From a virus (lineage: Duplodnaviria > Caudoviricetes), in the IMG/VR virus record IMGVR_UViG_3300048502_000104, positions 805-64,804 of that record: DNA of 64,000 bases; one strand, 5' to 3'. Of this stretch, positions 14,571-39,763 are shown one piece after another. The position numbers and the translations under genes are program-made. The notes beneath the pieces are model-generated. The model did no database searches, was not told the origin of the DNA, and saw only the letters and a list, made by a program, of their open reading frames with translations. The stretch's first letter is position 1. The number at the start of each line of letters is the position of its first letter.

Positions 14571-14584
14571 AGTGAGCACTTACG
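14571..14584. promoter_or_regulatory. Copy of 14-bp pseudo-palindrome over start codon of first rightward gene
   Basis: AGTGAGCACTTACG at the divergence point of late and early blocks. Confidence 0.5.
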
Positions 14585-14790
14585 TCAAGCGAATTGACGC
14601 CGACTACGCGGAAGGCAGCGCTATCGCCTACGCCGAATACAAACGCCGGCTGACTGTCGCGCAGCAGCTGTACGGCCTGGGCCTGAGCACCGATCAACAG
14701 TACGTGCGGGATGTCGAGGCGGCCGAGCAGGATTACGGGAACCTGCGCCGCTGGCTGATCGAGCGCCTCGAAGAGACCGTCGAGTTGTAG
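14572..14790 (+). CDS. Hypothetical protein
   Basis: 72 aa, GTG start; stop 2 nt before hammerhead 1. Confidence 0.6.
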   Translation: MSTYVKRIDADYAEGSAIAYAEYKRRLTVAQQLYGLGLSTDQQYVRDVEAAEQDYGNLRRWLIERLEETVEL

Positions 14791-14792
14791 CA

Positions 14793-14852
14793 GGCCGAAA
14801 CCCGGCGCAGGCCGGGTCGCACCGTGACGCGGTGCCTGATGATGGCCATCAG
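14793..14852 (+). ncRNA. Type II hammerhead ribozyme, copy 1 (predicted cleavage after 14818)
   Basis: GGCC-GAAA-[CCCGGC GCAG GCCGGG]-UC-[GCACCG UGACG CGGUGC]-CUGAUGA-U-GGCC: all core nucleotides, stems I/II/III, GUC triplet. Confidence 0.85.
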
Positions 14853-14876
14853 CTAACCCGTTGAAAGGACAGCAAA

Positions 14877-15878
14877 ATGTCGCATGCAATCACGATGATA
14901 GGCAACACGGCGCAAGCCGCCTACGCGGAAACCAAGGCGTGGCATGGCCTGGGCCAAATCCTGCGCCGCGGCGCGAGCCTGGAAGAGTGGGCGCAAGCCG
15001 CCGGCTTCGACTGGGAAGTCAAGCGCGCGTTCGTCCGCTACCTGACCGGCCCGGAGGGTCAGCCCGGCAGCAACCTGCTCGTCGACAAAGACAACGTGGT
15101 CTTGTTCGCCAGCGACACCAAACAACGCGTCGGCATCGTCTCCGACACCTACAAGATCGTGCAGCCCATCGAGCACCTGGAATTCTTCCGGGAGTGGATC
15201 GAGGCGGGCGGGGCGACGATGGAATCGGCGGCCTGGCTGCATAACCGCGCGCGCTGCTTCGCCCTGGCGCGCATCGGCGACGAAGTGGCACTCGGTGCGA
15301 ACGGCACGGACCGCATCATCCCGTACGTGCGCGTCAGCGGCTCGGTGGACGGCAGCACAGCCACCGAGGCGGGCGGTACGTCGCTTCGCGTCGAGTGCGC
15401 CAACATGTTACAGCTGTCCCTGGCGCAAGACAAAAGCGTGTACCGGTGCTCGCACCGCAGCAAGTTCCAGCCCGCCGAGGCGCGCGCCGCGGTCGAGAGT
15501 CAGATCAAGGCTTTCGGCGCGTTCGTCGAGGCGGCGCGCACGCTGGCGCGTCGCAAGGTGGCCGCGGCCGAGGCGGACGCGTTCGTTCGCTCAGTACTGG
15601 CAAGTCAGCCCGCGGTGGTGGCGGACGACGTAGCCGACAAAGCGCGTGCTTCCGCCGGGTACAAGAAAGTGCTCGCGCTGTTCAACGGCGAGGGCGGCGG
15701 CAGCGCCCTGGCCACGGCGCGCGGCACCGCCTGGGGACTGCTGAACGCCGTCACCGACTACGTAGACCACTCTATCCGCGCCACGTCGGATGACCAGCGT
15801 CTCAACAGCGCGATGTTCGGTGCGGGTAGCCAGATCAAGGCACGCGCCGCGCAGGCAGCGCTCGCCCTGGTCGCGTAA
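14877..15878 (+). CDS. DUF932 family protein (phage/plasmid TIGR03299-like)
   Basis: AWHGLG, VSDTYKIVQP, LHNRARCF, RVECANML, SHRS, GTAWGLLNAVTDYVDH motifs. Confidence 0.85.
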   Translation: MSHAITMIGNTAQAAYAETKAWHGLGQILRRGASLEEWAQAAGFDWEVKRAFVRYLTGPEGQPGSNLLVDKDNVVLFASDTKQRVGIVSDTYKIVQPIEHLEFFREWIEAGGATMESAAWLHNRARCFALARIGDEVALGANGTDRIIPYVRVSGSVDGSTATEAGGTSLRVECANMLQLSLAQDKSVYRCSHRSKFQPAEARAAVESQIKAFGAFVEAARTLARRKVAAAEADAFVRSVLASQPAVVADDVADKARASAGYKKVLALFNGEGGGSALATARGTAWGLLNAVTDYVDHSIRATSDDQRLNSAMFGAGSQIKARAAQAALALVA

Positions 15879-15880
15879 CA

Positions 15881-15942
15881 GGCCGAAACGCCAGCGCGAG
15901 CTGGCGTCGCACCGTGATGCGGTGCCTGACGATGGCCGTCAG
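15881..15942 (+). ncRNA. Type II hammerhead ribozyme, copy 2 (predicted cleavage after 15908)
   Basis: GGCC-GAAA-[CGCCAGC GCGA GCUGGCG]-UC-[GCACCG UGAUG CGGUGC]-CUGACGA-U-GGCC; stem III differs from copy 1 but is fully paired. Confidence 0.85.
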
Positions 15943-15965
15943 CAACCTTCCCTGGAGATACAGCA

Positions 15966-16256
15966 ATGGCAGCACTAACAATCGAGCTGGACCGCAGCAC
16001 GCTGGAAACGGTAATCGGCGCACTCGCCGACAAGCATGCCGCGCTGCGGCGGCGCGCCGCCGCATTCCGGGCCGCCGACAACCTCGCCGCCGCCTACGCC
16101 GCCGCCGACGCCGCCGACGCCGCCGCCGCCGCCTACTACGCCGCCTACGCCGACGCCTACGCCGACGCCGCCGCCGACGTGGCACGCCTGGAGCGGGTTC
16201 TGCAACAGCTGGAGTCGGAGCGCACGCGTCTAGCGCATTCGCGGTACCTCAAGTAG
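15966..16256 (+). CDS. Hypothetical protein with Ala/Asp/Tyr low-complexity tract
   Basis: 96 aa, GGAGA RBS after hammerhead 2. Confidence 0.65.
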   Translation: MAALTIELDRSTLETVIGALADKHAALRRRAAAFRAADNLAAAYAAADAADAAAAAYYAAYADAYADAAADVARLERVLQQLESERTRLAHSRYLK

Positions 16257-16324
16257 TCCTTTATATGTCAAGCTACGTTCAGTTGGCGGGCGTCTTGCCC
16301 GCCATAACCAAGGGAGTGGGGAAC

Positions 16325-16591
16325 ATGGATGCAATCAAGTACCTGGGCCACGGCGCCCGCACCGGCGCCCTGCAGCAGCACAGCGTCGACGATTTGATCT
16401 ATCCGTACATCGTCTACGCGCAGGAGACCGCGCACGGCACGCTGTGGGGCGTGACGCACGCGAACGGCGACTTCGACACGGGCGCTAAGTTCACCTGCGC
16501 CCACGCGCACAGCCTCGCGCGCCGCGCGCGGCAGTATCGCAGCGAGCTGGCCATCCGGGCGAGGGATCGGCTGGATAGTCGGCCGAACTAG
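16325..16591 (+). CDS. Hypothetical protein
   Basis: Start MDAIKYLGHG; the G of its TAG stop is the first base of hammerhead 3. Confidence 0.6.
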   Translation: MDAIKYLGHGARTGALQQHSVDDLIYPYIVYAQETAHGTLWGVTHANGDFDTGAKFTCAHAHSLARRARQYRSELAIRARDRLDSRPN

Positions 16592-16650
16592 GCCGAAACC
16601 CGGCGCAGGCCGGGTCGCACCGTGATGCGGTGCCTGACGATGGCCGTCAG
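16591..16650 (+). ncRNA. Type II hammerhead ribozyme, copy 3 (predicted cleavage after 16616)
   Basis: Stem III as copy 1; loop I and core as copy 2. Confidence 0.85.
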
Positions 16651-16673
16651 CAACCTTTCCTGGAGATGCAGCA

Positions 16674-16850
16674 ATGGCAAAGTACACGGTTTACGTTACG
16701 CGCACGACCACCTACGAGGTCGAGGCGGATGGCCCGGAGGATGGCGAAGATAACCTCCTGGAGCTGTGCGACGACGACACCGAAGTGGATCAGGTCACTG
16801 ATAGTGTCGAGGTCGTGCCCCAGAACGCGTCGGCGGGGGTCACGCCATGA
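16674..16850 (+). CDS. Small acidic protein (58 aa)
   Basis: Hand translation MAKYTVYVTRTTTYEVEADGPEDGEDNLLELCDDD...; GGAGA RBS; below the ORF-track size cut-off. Confidence 0.6.
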   Translation: MAKYTVYVTRTTTYEVEADGPEDGEDNLLELCDDDTEVDQVTDSVEVVPQNASAGVTP

Positions 16851-17017
16851 AAGATCAGGAGCTGAAAGATCGGCTGCGCCGCCAGCGCGCCGAGGACGAG
16901 GCTTACTGGCGCAAAGGGCACAGCGACGCGTACCTGCGTCGGCTGCGCGACTGGTCGCAATCGCGCGACAATTCGGCGAAGCGGATTGCCGCCGCCACAA
17001 CACCCGGGAGGCGGTGA
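16847..17017 (+). CDS. Small basic protein (56 aa)
   Basis: ATGA overlap; MKDQELKDRLRRQRAEDEAYWRKGHSDAY... Confidence 0.55.
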   Translation: MKDQELKDRLRRQRAEDEAYWRKGHSDAYLRRLRDWSQSRDNSAKRIAAATTPGRR

Positions 17018-17096
17018 TGGTCTTTATGAACCGTTGGGATATCGACGAGGCCCTCGCACGCGCGCGGCCTGCTTCCCTGGACTGGAGGGATTGACG

Positions 17097-17333
17097 ATGA
17101 TCAACCTGCTTAAGTGGGCGTGGTTTGCGCGCGAGCAGCACGTCACCTGCACGCGGTGCACCCTCGGCTGCCCGGCTGAGGGTGGATTCTCCGACGCGGC
17201 GCTGTACGCCGAAGGGCGGCCCAGTTTCGTCTGTGCGAACTGCGCGAAAGGCAAGCCGCCCGTCTTCCCCGTGGCGCCGAAGGTGCTCGCTCAGGCCGCG
17301 CCGCGCATCGACCCCGACGACGTCATTTTCTAG
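17097..17333 (+). CDS. Small Cys-containing (CxxC...CxxC) protein
   Basis: MINLLKWAWF...CTRC...CANC; GGAGG RBS. Confidence 0.55.
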   Translation: MINLLKWAWFAREQHVTCTRCTLGCPAEGGFSDAALYAEGRPSFVCANCAKGKPPVFPVAPKVLAQAAPRIDPDDVIF

Positions 17334-17341
17334 GAGGCATC

Positions 17342-17443
17342 ATGCGCCGCGCCGCCGTCTGGACAATCCTAAAGCTCTGGCGCGTGATGCCGCTGCGCCT
17401 GAAGCTGTGGGCTTTTATGAACGACGATATGCCCGAGGATTAG
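17342..17443 (+). CDS. 33-aa peptide
   Basis: GGAGG RBS; stop 1 nt before hammerhead 4. Confidence 0.45.
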   Translation: MRRAAVWTILKLWRVMPLRLKLWAFMNDDMPED

Positions 17444-17444
17444 A

Positions 17445-17506
17445 GGCCGAAACGCCAGCGCGAGCTGGCGTCGCACCGTGATGCGGTGCCTGACGATGGC
17501 CGTCAG
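17445..17506 (+). ncRNA. Type II hammerhead ribozyme, copy 4 (predicted cleavage after 17472)
   Basis: Same ribozyme sequence as copy 2. Confidence 0.85.
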
Positions 17507-17529
17507 TAACCTTTCCTGGAGATACGAGA

Positions 17530-17844
17530 ATGGCGAATTACCGAATCACCATCTGCGCGCGGTTCCGCGATGGCACCACCAACGAGACCGTAAGCGTCCA
17601 CCACGCGAACCTGGTACCGCTGGAGGCGGTGGGGCGCGCCGTACGCAAGCACTACGGGCGCGGCGCCTACTTCCGCACCGGCCGCCAGGAGCCCACGGGC
17701 GGCAACGTGATCGCCGGCACCATCGCGCGTGATCAGCCGTTCAAGCGCGCGCCCTTTGGGGCCGAGCTGGTCGGCAGCGTCGAGACCATGATCCTAGCGC
17801 ACGCCGTGGCGACCGTCACCCACCATCGCAAGGTGCGGCCATGA
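17530..17844 (+). CDS. Hypothetical protein
   Basis: 104 aa, GGAGA RBS after hammerhead 4. Confidence 0.65.
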   Translation: MANYRITICARFRDGTTNETVSVHHANLVPLEAVGRAVRKHYGRGAYFRTGRQEPTGGNVIAGTIARDQPFKRAPFGAELVGSVETMILAHAVATVTHHRKVRP

Positions 17845-17957
17845 AGGGCGCGAAGAACTGGGCGCTGATCATCGTCTCGACCTGCGCGCTGACCGGATTG
17901 AGCGCGGGCCTCTTTGCGATCTGCATCAGCGCAGCGCGCACCGGGGCGCTGGCATGA
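17841..17957 (+). CDS. 38-aa single-TM peptide
   Basis: ATGA overlaps on both sides; MKGAKNWALIIVSTCALTGLSAGLFAICISAARTGALA. Confidence 0.45.
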   Translation: MKGAKNWALIIVSTCALTGLSAGLFAICISAARTGALA

Positions 17958-19339
17958 TCACCGCAACCACAGGAGCTGAAATGAACACTGCAACCACCGT
18001 CACGACGGCCGTCGAAGCGCCGGCCGAGGTCGAGGTCATCGCCGTCAAGGGCTTCGACAAAGATCTGAAATGCCGCGGCTTCCAGTACGAGATCGGCAAG
18101 TCGTTCGAGCATGACGGCCAGGTCATGGCCTGCGAATCGGGCTTTCATGCCTGCGAGCGGCCCAGTGACGTATTCGCCTACTACGCGCCTGGCGAGTCGC
18201 GGTTCGCCGTTGTCAAGCTGAGCGGCGAGCTGTCGCGGCATGGCGGAGACTCCAAGATTGCCGCTGCGCGCATCACCATTGAGGCCGAGGTCGGCGTTCC
18301 GGAAATCGTCAAGCGCACGATCGATTGGGTCATCTCGCATTGCGAGCCGGAAGGCGAGCAGGCCACGGGCACCAGAGGCGCAGCGTCGGCCACGGGCTAC
18401 CAGGGCGCAGCGTCGGCCACGGGCTACCGCGGCGCAGCGTCGGCCACGGGCGGCAGCGGCGCAGCGTCGGCCACGGGCGACAGCGGCGCAGCGTCGGCCA
18501 CGGGCGACGGCGGCGCAGCGTCGGCCACGGGCGACGGCGGCGCAGCGTCGGCCACGGGCTACCGCGGCGCAGCGTCGGCCACGGGCGGCAGCGGCGCAGC
18601 GTCGGCCACGGGCGACGGCGGCGCAGCGTCGGCCACGGGCTACCGCGGCGCAGCGTCGGCCACGGGCGACAGCGGCGCAGCGTCGGCCACGGGCGACGGC
18701 GGCGCAGCGTCGGCCACGGGCGACAGCGGCGCAGCGTCGGCCACGGGCACCAGAGGCGCAGCGTCGGCCACGGGCTACCAGGGCGCAGCGTCGGCCACGG
18801 GCTACCGCGGCGCAGCGTCGGCCACGGGCGACGGCGGCGCAGCGTCGGCCACAGGCTACCGCGGCGCAGCGTCGGCCACGGGCGAGGGCGGCGCAGCGTC
18901 GGCCACGGGCGACGGCGGCGCAGCGTCGGCCACGGGCTACCGCGGCGCAGCGTCGGCCACGGGCGACAGCGGCGCAGCGTCGGCCACGGGCGACAGCGGC
19001 GCAGCGTCGGCCACGGGCGACGGCGGCGCAGCGTCGGCCACGGGCTACCGCGGCGCAGCGTCGGCCACGGGCGGCAGCGGCGCAGCGTCGGCCACGGGCG
19101 ACAGCGGCGCAGCGTCGGCCACGGGCACCAGAGGCGCAGCCATGGCTTCCGGTCGATTCGGCCGCGCCATGGGCGCCGAGGGCTGCGCGCTATTCCTGGT
19201 CTACCGCGGCGAGGACTGTAAGATCGTCCACGCGCGAGCAGCTATCGTCGGACGCGATGGCATCAAGCCCGACACGTGGTATTCGCTCAGCGATGCCGGC
19301 GAGATTGTGGAAGCCGCGAGGAGGTGGGAGCGTGATTAG
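17954..19339 (+). CDS. Phage protein with conserved N-domain and GAASATGxx repeat
   Basis: KGFDKDLKCRGFQYEIG...CESGFHACE...DSKIAA N-domain; repeat region; C-terminal DGIKPDTWY. Confidence 0.8.
   Translation: MITATTGAEMNTATTVTTAVEAPAEVEVIAVKGFDKDLKCRGFQYEIGKSFEHDGQVMACESGFHACERPSDVFAYYAPGESRFAVVKLSGELSRHGGDSKIAAARITIEAEVGVPEIVKRTIDWVISHCEPEGEQATGTRGAASATGYQGAASATGYRGAASATGGSGAASATGDSGAASATGDGGAASATGDGGAASATGYRGAASATGGSGAASATGDGGAASATGYRGAASATGDSGAASATGDGGAASATGDSGAASATGTRGAASATGYQGAASATGYRGAASATGDGGAASATGYRGAASATGEGGAASATGDGGAASATGYRGAASATGDSGAASATGDSGAASATGDGGAASATGYRGAASATGGSGAASATGDSGAASATGTRGAAMASGRFGRAMGAEGCALFLVYRGEDCKIVHARAAIVGRDGIKPDTWYSLSDAGEIVEAARRWERD
18361..19140 (+). repeat. 27-bp in-frame tandem repeat (~29 units)
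   Basis: GGCGCAGCGTCGGCCACGGGC plus 6 variable nt encoding TR/YQ/YR/GS/DS/DG/EG. Confidence 0.95.
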
Positions 19340-38689: not shown

Positions 38690-39122
38690 CGAGGTGCCAC
38701 AGACTCCGGCCGACGAGGAGATCGACAAGGTCGTCTCGGAGATCGCGGAGCACATCGAGCAGCAGCGCGTGATCGCCACCGTGCTCGAGGCGCTGGACCT
38801 GATCGTCCAGGCGGTCGACAAGCACAGCGCCGCGCCGAGGGGCCTGACGTCGCTCTTCGAGACGGAGGAAGACAAGGCATCGGGCCGCGAGTTCGTGGTG
38901 CGCATGGTCGAGTCGCCGCGCTCCGAGATGATCCGGTTCGCGGCCGCGGTCGGCGCGATCCCCGGCCTGTCACGCGAAGACGGCGTGCCTGAAGCGAGCC
39001 CGCAAGACTTCATGCTGTTCCTGCTGGCCAACTCTCTGGTCTCGCTGTTCCGTTCGGACCCGCGGGCCCTTTTCGAGAGGATGCTGTTCTCGCAGTTTCG
39101 GCTCGACAAGGTGGGCGAATGA
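38682..39122 (+). CDS. Acidic helical hypothetical protein
   Basis: 146 aa, GGAGG RBS. Confidence 0.6.
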   Translation: MNDEVPQTPADEEIDKVVSEIAEHIEQQRVIATVLEALDLIVQAVDKHSAAPRGLTSLFETEEDKASGREFVVRMVESPRSEMIRFAAAVGAIPGLSREDGVPEASPQDFMLFLLANSLVSLFRSDPRALFERMLFSQFRLDKVGE

Positions 39123-39763
39123 GCGAGGACCCGATCTTCCTGGAGGAGGTGTATGTGGTGCAGGAGCCGCCGCCCTTCGAGCCGTTCCCGAAGATTCCAC
39201 GGTGGTCGCGCGACATCGTGATCACCGAGAAGATCGACGGCACCAACGGGCGCATTGTTGTGCTGCCCGATGGCCGCTGCATCGCAGGCAGCAAGAATCG
39301 CTACCTGTCGGTCGACAGCCGGGACGGCTTCGGGTTTGCGCAGTGGGTCGAGCAGAACTACAAACTCCTCGCCATGCTCCTGGGGACCGGCACACACCTG
39401 GGCGAGTGGTGGGGCGAGGGCATCCAGCGCGGCTACGGGGTGCGCCGGAAAAAGTTCTCGCTCTTCAACGTCTCGCGCTGGGCGCACCCGTGCGAGTACT
39501 ACCCGCTTGGCGGCAAGGAGTTCTGGGGTGGCGCGTGGGCCGAGCACGCGGACGCGATCGGCCTGGACGTCGTGCCGGTGCTGTACGTCGGCGAGAACAC
39601 CAACTACTCGATCCACCTGGCACTGAGCAGGTTGCAGGTGGGTGGGAGCGTGGCCGCACCCGGCTTCACAAATCCCGAGGGCGTCATCATCTACCACACC
39701 GCGGCCAACTCGATGTTCAAAAAGACCATCGCGAAAGACGAGGAGGGCAAATGGACGAAGTGA
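39119..39763 (+). CDS. ATP-dependent RNA ligase-like nucleotidyltransferase
   Basis: FPKIPR...ITEKIDGTNG (motif I), GSKNR, GEWWG, FSLFN, EGVII, FK. Confidence 0.8.
   Translation: MSEDPIFLEEVYVVQEPPPFEPFPKIPRWSRDIVITEKIDGTNGRIVVLPDGRCIAGSKNRYLSVDSRDGFGFAQWVEQNYKLLAMLLGTGTHLGEWWGEGIQRGYGVRRKKFSLFNVSRWAHPCEYYPLGGKEFWGGAWAEHADAIGLDVVPVLYVGENTNYSIHLALSRLQVGGSVAAPGFTNPEGVIIYHTAANSMFKKTIAKDEEGKWTK

Follow-up and report, generated by a model that had tools for sequence, protein, structure and literature searches.

The window analyzed here is a 64,000-nt stretch (positions 805 to 64,804) of the IMG/VR record IMGVR_UViG_3300048502_000104, a virus record of 64.8 kb with genes for terminase, portal, and a major head protein. 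Between leftward gene blocks lies a separate 4.8-kb rightward unit of small ORFs without assigned function, and on the same + strand are four near-identical type II hammerhead ribozymes with predicted cleavage after C14818, C15908, C16616, and C17472 (scissile bonds placed by base counting in the sequence). According to the original prediction, consecutive cleavage sites bound three internal fragments, 1090, 708, and 856 nt long, that all keep an RBS and complete ORFs. These coordinates were reproduced exactly (14819-15908, 15909-16616, and 16617-17472), and the assignment of the DUF932 gene to the first fragment, two ORFs to the second, and a string of small ORFs (five as counted here) to the third held as well. 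The first ORF of every fragment is preceded by a Shine-Dalgarno-like motif 6-10 nt upstream, and no ORF with coding-type GC3 spans a cleavage site in the ORF list and GC3 profile. A consensus scan for promoters and terminators found none separating the units, apart from one weak hairpin.

The first gene of the rightward unit (14572-14790, + strand; ORF list and GC3 profile) encodes 72 aa with no Pfam or PHROG match. It is carried by the 5' leader piece, which would be unable to circularize because its 5' end is the end of the primary transcript. The sole ORF of the 1090-nt fragment is the DUF932 gene (14877-15878, + strand; Pfam PF06067, 4.3e-44; phrog_1221, 2.4e-50). The two ORFs of the 708-nt fragment (15966-16591, + strand) run from 15966 to 16256, coding for an Ala-rich protein of 96 aa, and from 16265 or 16325 to 16591 (phrog_29226); the G of the TAG stop codon at 16591 is shared with stem II of the third hammerhead. 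The 856-nt fragment carries five small coupled ORFs (16674-17443, + strand) of 58, 56, 25, 78, and 33 aa at 16674-16850, 16847-17017, 17017-17094, 17097-17333, and 17342-17443, none of which belongs to a known family in Pfam or PHROG. The distal genes (17530-19339, + strand) comprise two ORFs, one of 104 aa and one short, and the gene of a DUF7666 protein of 461 aa in which collagen-like repeats of 9 residues occur. They lie on the 3' piece, which could not circularize by hammerhead-end chemistry since it ends in the 3'-OH of the transcript.

Four type II hammerhead units

The units are located on the + strand at 14793-14852 (HH1), 15881-15942 (HH2), 16591-16650 (HH3), and 17445-17506 (HH4), and the whole 64.8-kb record contains exactly four copies. 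From 5' to 3', each unit reads GGCC-GAAAC, the stem III hairpin, and GUC, followed past the cut by the stem I hairpin (GCACCG-UGAYG-CGGUGC), CUGAYGA, U, and GGCC. All four copies have the canonical catalytic core (CUGAYGA and GAAA, A15.1/U16.1, and GUC at the cleavage site), that is, C3-U4-G5-A6-N7-G8-A9, G12-A13-A14, the A15.1-U16.1 pair, and a cleavage triplet whose last base is H17; an extra U stands between A9 and G10.1 in every copy and might affect the cleavage rate. Three helices are likewise found in all four: stem I of 6-7 bp, stem III of 7-8 bp with tetraloops, and a 4-bp stem II of GGCC/GGCC. Loops close stems I and III and stem II is open, which is the type II topology. For HH1 the predicted minimum-energy structure is the ribozyme fold itself. 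Stem III comes in two fully compensatory versions within the window, type A in HH1 and HH3 and type B in HH2 and HH4, which alternate A-B-A-B along the array. The copies are also mosaic: by stem III, HH1 goes with HH3 and HH2 goes with HH4; by the tail/RBS region, HH2, HH3, and HH4 stand together against HH1. HH1 is marked by a loop C, U7, and a tail A, and HH2 and HH3 show differences near the RBS.

At its gathering threshold Rfam reported one tRNA only, and the hammerheads surfaced only in an E-value search against Hammerhead_II (RF02276), in which HH3 scored 29.9 bits and HH1 28.8 bits, under the threshold of 37, and HH2 and HH4 were unlisted. This shortfall is consistent with short loops and a 3' tail unlike those of the model. 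On sequence grounds, the type II hammerhead identity is established by the core, the three-helix layout, and covariation despite the sub-threshold Rfam scores. A type I/III-style pattern gave no match in the window, only type II copies being present, and there was no twister, pistol, or hatchet hit at 12-22 kb or in seven related loci.

Covariation, module geometry, and the tail/core hairpin

A pattern search of IMG/VR that imposed no pairing requirement returned 110 unique motifs. Stem III formed at least five contiguous pairs in 89 of the 110 motifs (9 expected from shuffles; 97 distinct sequences), and stem I at least four pairs in 104 of them (4 expected from shuffles; 92 distinct sequences). 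Pairing was counted by script, as the MAFFT alignment misaligned stem III. As judged across these relatives, the compensatory changes in stems I and III over ~100 distinct sequences, together with the invariant core, show that the RNA fold itself, and not DNA homology alone, is under selection. DNA and protein searches of cultured phages found no close relative; the DNA matches consisted solely of the 62-nt ribozyme motif, at 83% identity, in unrelated Streptomyces phages. A scan of genome contigs yielded a single contig, from a Gemmataceae MAG.

The position of the ribozyme relative to the genes is also conserved. Within the window, GGCC follows the stop codon after 0-3 nt, and the start codon stands 58 nt past the cut. 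Among 123 unique relatives, a stop triplet occurs no more than 12 nt upstream of stem II, or overlaps it, in 113, and 108 have a Shine-Dalgarno motif with a start codon no farther than 120 nt from the cut.

Each unit ends in a tail, CAUCAG in HH1 (14847-14852), able to pair with the core CUGAUG, and CGUCAG in HH2, HH3, and HH4. The tail, CRUCAG in general form, is complementary to the core CUGAYG, and the resulting hairpin sequesters C3-G8. It is present in 57 of the 123 relatives, where the pair at position 7 is C:G in 45 and U:A in 12 with zero exceptions; the remaining 54% are without it. The tail/core hairpin fold is predicted to be more stable than the ribozyme fold by 0.1-1.7 kcal/mol, and with the extended pairing of the minimum-energy structures the inactive fold is favored by 1.9-4.4 kcal/mol. 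Because of this latter difference, cleavage might be slow or conditional instead of constitutive. Most type II hammerheads have a pseudoknot in which loop I pairs with the 3' tail past stem II (Perreault et al., 2011; PMC3088659). In the window, 3-4 pairs would be possible between loop UGAY and tail RUCA, whereas in relatives loop I varies freely. We set the pseudoknot aside as the meaning of the RUCAG tail, since the tail tracks core position 7 (57/57) and not loop I.

Probable processing into linear mRNAs

We know of no natural phage hammerhead for which a processing benefit (stability, insulation) has been demonstrated, nor, to our knowledge, has a biological role been proven for the hammerheads of bacteria and phages, which number in the thousands. 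With four near-identical stop-ribozyme-hairpin-RBS modules in what would be one operon, the array is a clean, compact test case, suited to measuring the effect of ribozyme processing on mRNA stability and translation, and circle formation.

The most probable reading, to which we assign a probability of roughly 0.75, is that active type II hammerheads in intercistronic modules cut one transcript into linear mRNAs and provide RiboJ-like insulation. Each module runs from the upstream stop codon through the ribozyme, a short hairpin, and the Shine-Dalgarno sequence to the start codon. A single rightward transcript from ~14.5 kb would be cut into five linear RNAs during or soon after synthesis. The 5'-OH of each downstream piece would sit on the stem I hairpin, which is fully paired, and each upstream piece would close with the stem III hairpin and bear a 2',3'-cyclic phosphate; ends of this kind should give little access to 5'-monophosphate-dependent RNase E, to 3' exonucleases, or to poly(A) polymerase. 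The cassettes would each receive a near-identical 5' UTR, independent of the preceding gene, and the unit could act as a natural RiboJ-like module that uncouples the stability and translation of adjacent cassettes. After cleavage, the 4-bp stem II would allow the two halves to part, and the tail CRUCAG would fold onto the core CUGAYG, so that religation would be disfavored.

Published work on similar elements is available for several of these steps. Hammerheads clustered in prophages self-cleave both in vitro and in E. coli, and have been interpreted as mRNA processing elements (PMC3088659, PMC6765202). Products of type II hammerheads that carry 2',3'-cyclic phosphate as well as 5'-OH ends were obtained in linear form from Desulfovibrio cells (PMC8782182), and 5'-OH substrates are cut poorly by RNase E (PMC4191395). 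RiboJ, which joins the sTRSV hammerhead to a hairpin of 23 nt placed upstream of the RBS, increases the levels of both mRNA and protein, an effect credited to its terminal hairpin (PMC6206723). The present units share with RiboJ the order ribozyme, hairpin, RBS and a cut that would strip the upstream context to leave a hairpin-capped, standardized 5' UTR. They differ from it in being natural, type II and not type III, and placed between cistrons and not after a promoter, and in that their hairpin uses the catalytic core of the ribozyme itself.

It is unlikely that the unit of ribozyme and RBS serves mainly as a repeat that spreads, or as a boundary for recombination, and so shuffles cassettes among phages, with RNA cleavage secondary or neutral. 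Such spreading would agree with the mosaic copies in the window (stem III of HH1+HH3 and HH2+HH4; tail/RBS of HH2-HH4 versus HH1), with the 62-nt motif shared with Streptomyces phages, and with the genes between hammerheads, which vary among relatives (Perreault et al., 2011; PMC3088659); the compensatory stem I and III changes and the invariant core argue against it, as they point to selection on the RNA fold. Distinctly unlikely, too, is a conditional switch, in which the tail/core hairpin and flanking pairing would hold the ribozymes off until a signal arrives (for example Mg2+, temperature, or a ribosome positioned at the neighboring stop codon or RBS) and so time or tune the downstream cassettes. 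The conserved, perfectly covarying hairpin over C3-G8, an inactive fold predicted to be as stable as, or more stable than, the active one, and the position of the upstream stop abutting or overlapping stem II, with the RBS just 3' of the tail, all speak for a switch. However, more than half of the relatives do not have the hairpin, the units have no evident ligand-binding or sensor domain, and a post-cleavage lock and 5' UTR insulator, as in the linear-processing reading, explains the hairpin equally well.

Proposed circularization of the internal fragments

The linear-processing reading differs from the original prediction, which had proposed circular early mRNAs: the internal fragments would be circularized by host RtcB, or by a reverse hammerhead reaction via stem II, into exonuclease-resistant circular mRNAs. 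We consider this very unlikely. The end chemistry on which it was built is sound, as each internal fragment would carry both required ends, a 5'-OH and a 2',3'-cyclic phosphate, which are joined by RtcB. Stem II (GGCC/GGCC) is common to all four units, so that any 5' half could rebuild a hammerhead with any 3' half, and the tail/core hairpin could partly protect a circle from re-cleavage. The native RtcB of E. coli circularized engineered ribozyme-flanked mRNAs consisting of RBS, ORF, and stop, and these were translated, with a GFP yield 1.5-fold higher (PMC12628768).

The circular mRNAs nevertheless found no support in the sequence; self-recutting junctions, the lack of phage ligation genes, and mostly single hammerheads in relatives all count against them. 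On ligation, a complete cis hammerhead would be rebuilt at the circle junction, with fold energies as at the native sites, and for this reason a circle would be expected to re-cut itself. In sequence, such junctions would be set apart from the linear repeats by no more than a few SNPs. The competing hairpin is 0.1-1.7 kcal/mol more stable at the rebuilt junctions (1.9-4.4 kcal/mol with extended pairing), equal to the native sites, which must cleave. RtcB-joined RNAs were reported to be re-cleaved by ribozyme fragments that kept the active fold (PMC8782182).

With respect to ligation genes, the phage record contains no RtcB, no AAA_33/polynucleotide kinase, no Metallophos or 2H protein, and no 2',3'-phosphoesterase. 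It does contain, in the replication block, a 214-aa RNA-ligase-family protein (39119-39763, + strand; PF09414, 2e-11; phrog_548 'RNA ligase', 2.7e-25). PF09414-type RNA ligases join a 3'-OH to a 5'-P, not hammerhead ends; the 5'-P/3'-OH type that had been predicted for the gene at 39119 was therefore correct, and its product would be unable to use the hammerhead ends. RtcB itself is absent from many bacteria (4/14 control genomes).

Relatives do not conserve paired, mutually compatible flanking sites: 81 of the 104 related locus-strands have a single hammerhead, and the stem II halves are mismatched in 7 of 26 internal fragments, which therefore could not rebuild stem II. The GGCC stem II occurs in 113 loci; it is a trait of the subclass and not peculiar to this array. 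For an RtcB-positive host, it is more doubtful still that a meaningful share of the three internal fragments would be ligated into translatable circular mRNAs, with the tail/core hairpin locking the regenerated hammerhead. If true, this would be the first case of natural circular mRNAs in a DNA phage.

The original prediction knew of no described case, but the proposal itself has a precedent: Perreault et al. (2011; PMC3088659) already raised circular products of hammerhead clusters; they sought circular or spliced products from comparable clusters and detected none. In their prophage clusters, for example the three type II hammerheads arrayed around ardA in Agrobacterium tumefaciens, same-strand type II hammerheads also border individual genes or short runs of small phage genes that are not conserved, and the role expected was processing of a polycistronic transcript. 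The present array, with four same-strand sites 1090, 708, and 856 nt apart in a virus record, is of the same clustered kind. It differs in having four copies of one subclass (GGCC stem II, extra U after A9), in alternating stem III A-B-A-B, in the fusion of each unit to a conserved hairpin and RBS, and in flanking DUF932 and small ORFs without assigned function instead of ardA. We concluded that the layout has been known since 2011, and that the array adds an example of it and is no evidence for circular mRNAs.

Two other systems in which circles do form can be compared with the array. Tornado-type circular mRNA made by native RtcB in E. coli also starts from two-sided cleavage, which leaves a 5'-OH and a 2',3'-cyclic phosphate on an RNA of RBS, ORF, and stop (PMC12628768). 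However, Tornado discards its ribozymes, and designed complementary ends form the stem for RtcB, whereas the present fragments would keep most of each ribozyme, could bring together ends 700-1100 nt apart by a 4-bp helix alone, and would rebuild a self-cleaving site on ligation. In Avsunviroidae, viroid-like satellites, and retrozymes (PMC4918200, PMC7761336), hammerheads likewise cut both ends of a unit to give ligatable ends. Those RNAs are mostly non-coding, their hammerheads are type III or type I, eukaryotic tRNA ligase circularizes them, and rod-like or branched folds silence their ribozyme; the present array is instead a putative coding operon of a dsDNA phage, with no such fold evident and no known ligase partner.

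Four type II hammerheads and their relatives

Reading of the sequence over 14700-17640 together with a repeat search revealed one unit in four copies (HH1 to HH4), all on the + strand, and there are exactly four copies in the whole source record (64,804 bp, rated complete by CheckV; the window covers bases 805-64804 and has a G+C content of 67%). The unit runs GGCC-GAAAC, hairpin, GUC, hairpin GCACCG-UGAYG-CGGUGC, CUGAYGA-U-GGCC. Every hammerhead core position is present, with a single additional U between A9 and G10.1, and cleavage is predicted 3' of C17, i.e., after 14818, 15908, 16616, and 17472. The original prediction of a hammerhead array with three internal fragments was confirmed, and its fragment sizes (1090, 708, and 856 nt) match these cuts. 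In Rfam, HH3 and HH1 scored 29.9 and 28.8 bits, both under the 37-bit threshold; HH2 and HH4 had no match even in the sub-threshold listing. A structure-aware scan detected no further hammerheads in the window.

Stem III occurs in two fully compensatory versions, which alternate A-B-A-B along HH1-HH4. IMG/VR was searched with a pattern that fixed the core and stem II only and left both hairpin regions free, and 113 loci were matched. At least five contiguous stem III pairs were present in 89 of the 110 unique matches (9 expected from shuffles) and at least four stem I pairs in 104 (4 expected), with 97 and 92 distinct sequences for the stems. The compensatory stem III and the excess of pairing argue at the sequence level that the four units are real ribozymes. 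The GGCC stem II plus extra U is therefore a widespread phage subclass, not a peculiarity of the array.

The units (14792-14853 vs. 15880-15970, 16588-16678, and 17444-17534) are mosaic in composition: by stem III, HH1 goes with HH3 and HH2 with HH4, whereas the tail (the bases directly 3' of stem II) and RBS region set HH1 apart from HH2, HH3, and HH4, a pattern that suggests gene conversion or duplication of blocks. An unannotated 62-nt stretch, 83% identical to a window hammerhead, occurs at ∼146.1 kb in the Streptomyces phages Satis, Kradal, Quantum, EhyElimayoE, and JustBecause; in these five 186-kb actinophages it probably represents a type II hammerhead that has gone unrecognised. In two IMG/VR loci from related phages (L007:2179-2626 and L010:553-889) a GGCC-type hammerhead lies 270-380 nt from a type II hammerhead of another kind (stem II GGGC/GCCC, lacking the extra U), with one small gene between them. 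DNA and protein searches found no close cultured relative of the phage, which encodes terminase, portal, major head protein, family A DNA polymerase, helicases, and an RNA-ligase-family protein.

A hairpin competing with the core

CRUCAG, the hexamer following stem II (it shares the final C of GGCC), is complementary to core C3-G8. The hairpin CUGAYG-AUGGC-CRUCAG (14841-14852, 15931-15942, 16639-16650, and 17495-17506) sequesters the catalytic core; at position 7, U7 pairs with A in HH1 and C7 with G in HH2-HH4. The full 6-bp hairpin is found in 57 of 123 unique relatives (L013-L117), where position 7 is always Watson-Crick (C:G in 45, U:A in 12) and loop I varies. By energies without tertiary contacts, the ribozyme and hairpin folds are 0.1-1.7 kcal/mol apart, and in the MFE structures, where one more helix forms, the inactive state is more stable by 1.9-4.4 kcal/mol. 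The hairpin could be a post-cleavage lock or a switch. Perreault 2011 (PMC3088659) reported a loop I-tail pseudoknot for type II hammerheads; no description of the tail/core hairpin was found there.

Layout of the cassettes

Fragment 1 (14819-15908, + strand) carries a DUF932 gene (Pfam 4e-44), fragment 2 (15909-16616, +) two ORFs, one matching phrog_29226, and fragment 3 (16617-17472, +) five small coupled ORFs. Each was expected to keep its own RBS and complete ORFs, and this held: by ORF lists and GC3 no coding-type ORF spans a cut, and SD-like motifs precede the starts, with a start codon 58 nt downstream of each cut. Stop codons lie 0-3 nt upstream of stem II, and the G of the TAG ahead of HH3 is part of GGCC. 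The relatives share this geometry: of 123, 113 have a stop triplet that overlaps stem II or lies no more than 12 nt upstream of it, and in 108 an SD with a start codon follows no more than 120 nt after the cut. A consensus scan found no promoter in the block, and the single terminator-like hairpin inside it is weak; co-transcription is plausible.

Stop codons abut or overlap the stem II 5' strand at 14788-14796, 16589-16594, and 17441-17448, so that a terminating ribosome would cover that strand. The competing tail, in turn, would lie beneath a ribosome bound at the downstream RBS. Hammerhead cleavage may be coupled to translation.

Linear or circular products

Each unit is best explained as a module for intercistronic processing and insulation. 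The linear mRNAs produced by cleavage would start in a paired hairpin bearing a 5'-OH and finish in a hairpin bearing a cyclic phosphate; the weak stem II would let the products separate, and the tail/core hairpin would then capture the 3' product. This reading is consistent with the low efficiency at which RNase E cleaves 5'-OH substrates (PMC4191395). The post-cleavage hairpin of RiboJ, to which raised mRNA and protein levels are attributed (PMC6206723), offers a parallel, and linear type II hammerhead products with 5'-OH and 2',3'-cyclic phosphate ends were recovered from living Desulfovibrio (PMC8782182). Clustered hammerheads flank prophage genes and cleave in vitro and in E. coli (Perreault et al., 2011; PMC3088659), and the phage array is a further case of this known phage/prophage layout. 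Later reviews (including PMC6765202) consider the hammerhead role still open and prefer mRNA processing.

The original prediction read the internal fragments as circular early mRNAs. Circular products had already been considered for such clusters by Perreault et al. (2011), who detected none. All four ribozyme halves are interchangeable, the end chemistry is as predicted and suitable, and native E. coli RtcB is able to close a translatable mRNA flanked by ribozymes into a circle, as Tornado-type constructs have shown (PMC12628768); in contrast to the phage fragments, those designs lose the ribozymes and include an added closing stem. When the two ends of each internal fragment are joined in silico, this restores a complete cis hammerhead (-33.3, -32.3, and -33.2 kcal/mol, the same as native sites), so circles would cleave if native sites do. 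RNAs that RtcB had attached to ribozyme fragments keeping an active fold were immediately cut off again (Olzog et al.; PMC8782182). The phage record contains no RtcB, AAA_33 kinase, Metallophos, or 2H phosphoesterase. PF09414/phrog_548 members join 3'-OH to 5'-P, and membership of the 214-aa ORF at 39119-39763, which ends the replication block, agrees with its earlier assignment as a 5'-P/3'-OH ligase; no companion kinase or phosphatase was found anywhere in the genome. E. coli appears to have no kinase that acts on 5'-OH ends left by hammerheads (PMC4191395). Within the DNA examined, 81 of 104 related locus-strands have one hammerhead, 19 two, and 3 three. Stem II halves are mismatched in 7 of 26 distinct internal fragments of relatives, and the compatible majority says little because the search pattern biases the sample towards GGCC. 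Given the rebuilt hammerhead junction, the lack of RtcB or healing genes in the phage record, and the mostly single-hammerhead relatives, circular mRNAs are unsupported and improbable.

Neither the 5' piece (gene 14572-14790) nor the 3' piece (17473 onward, including the DUF7666 repeat protein) can circularise by hammerhead-end chemistry. The latter protein (17954-19339, 461 aa), the last gene product of the ribozyme-containing unit, carries DUF7666 at its N terminus, together with ∼29 collagen-like 27-bp repeats (GAASATGxx) in tandem.
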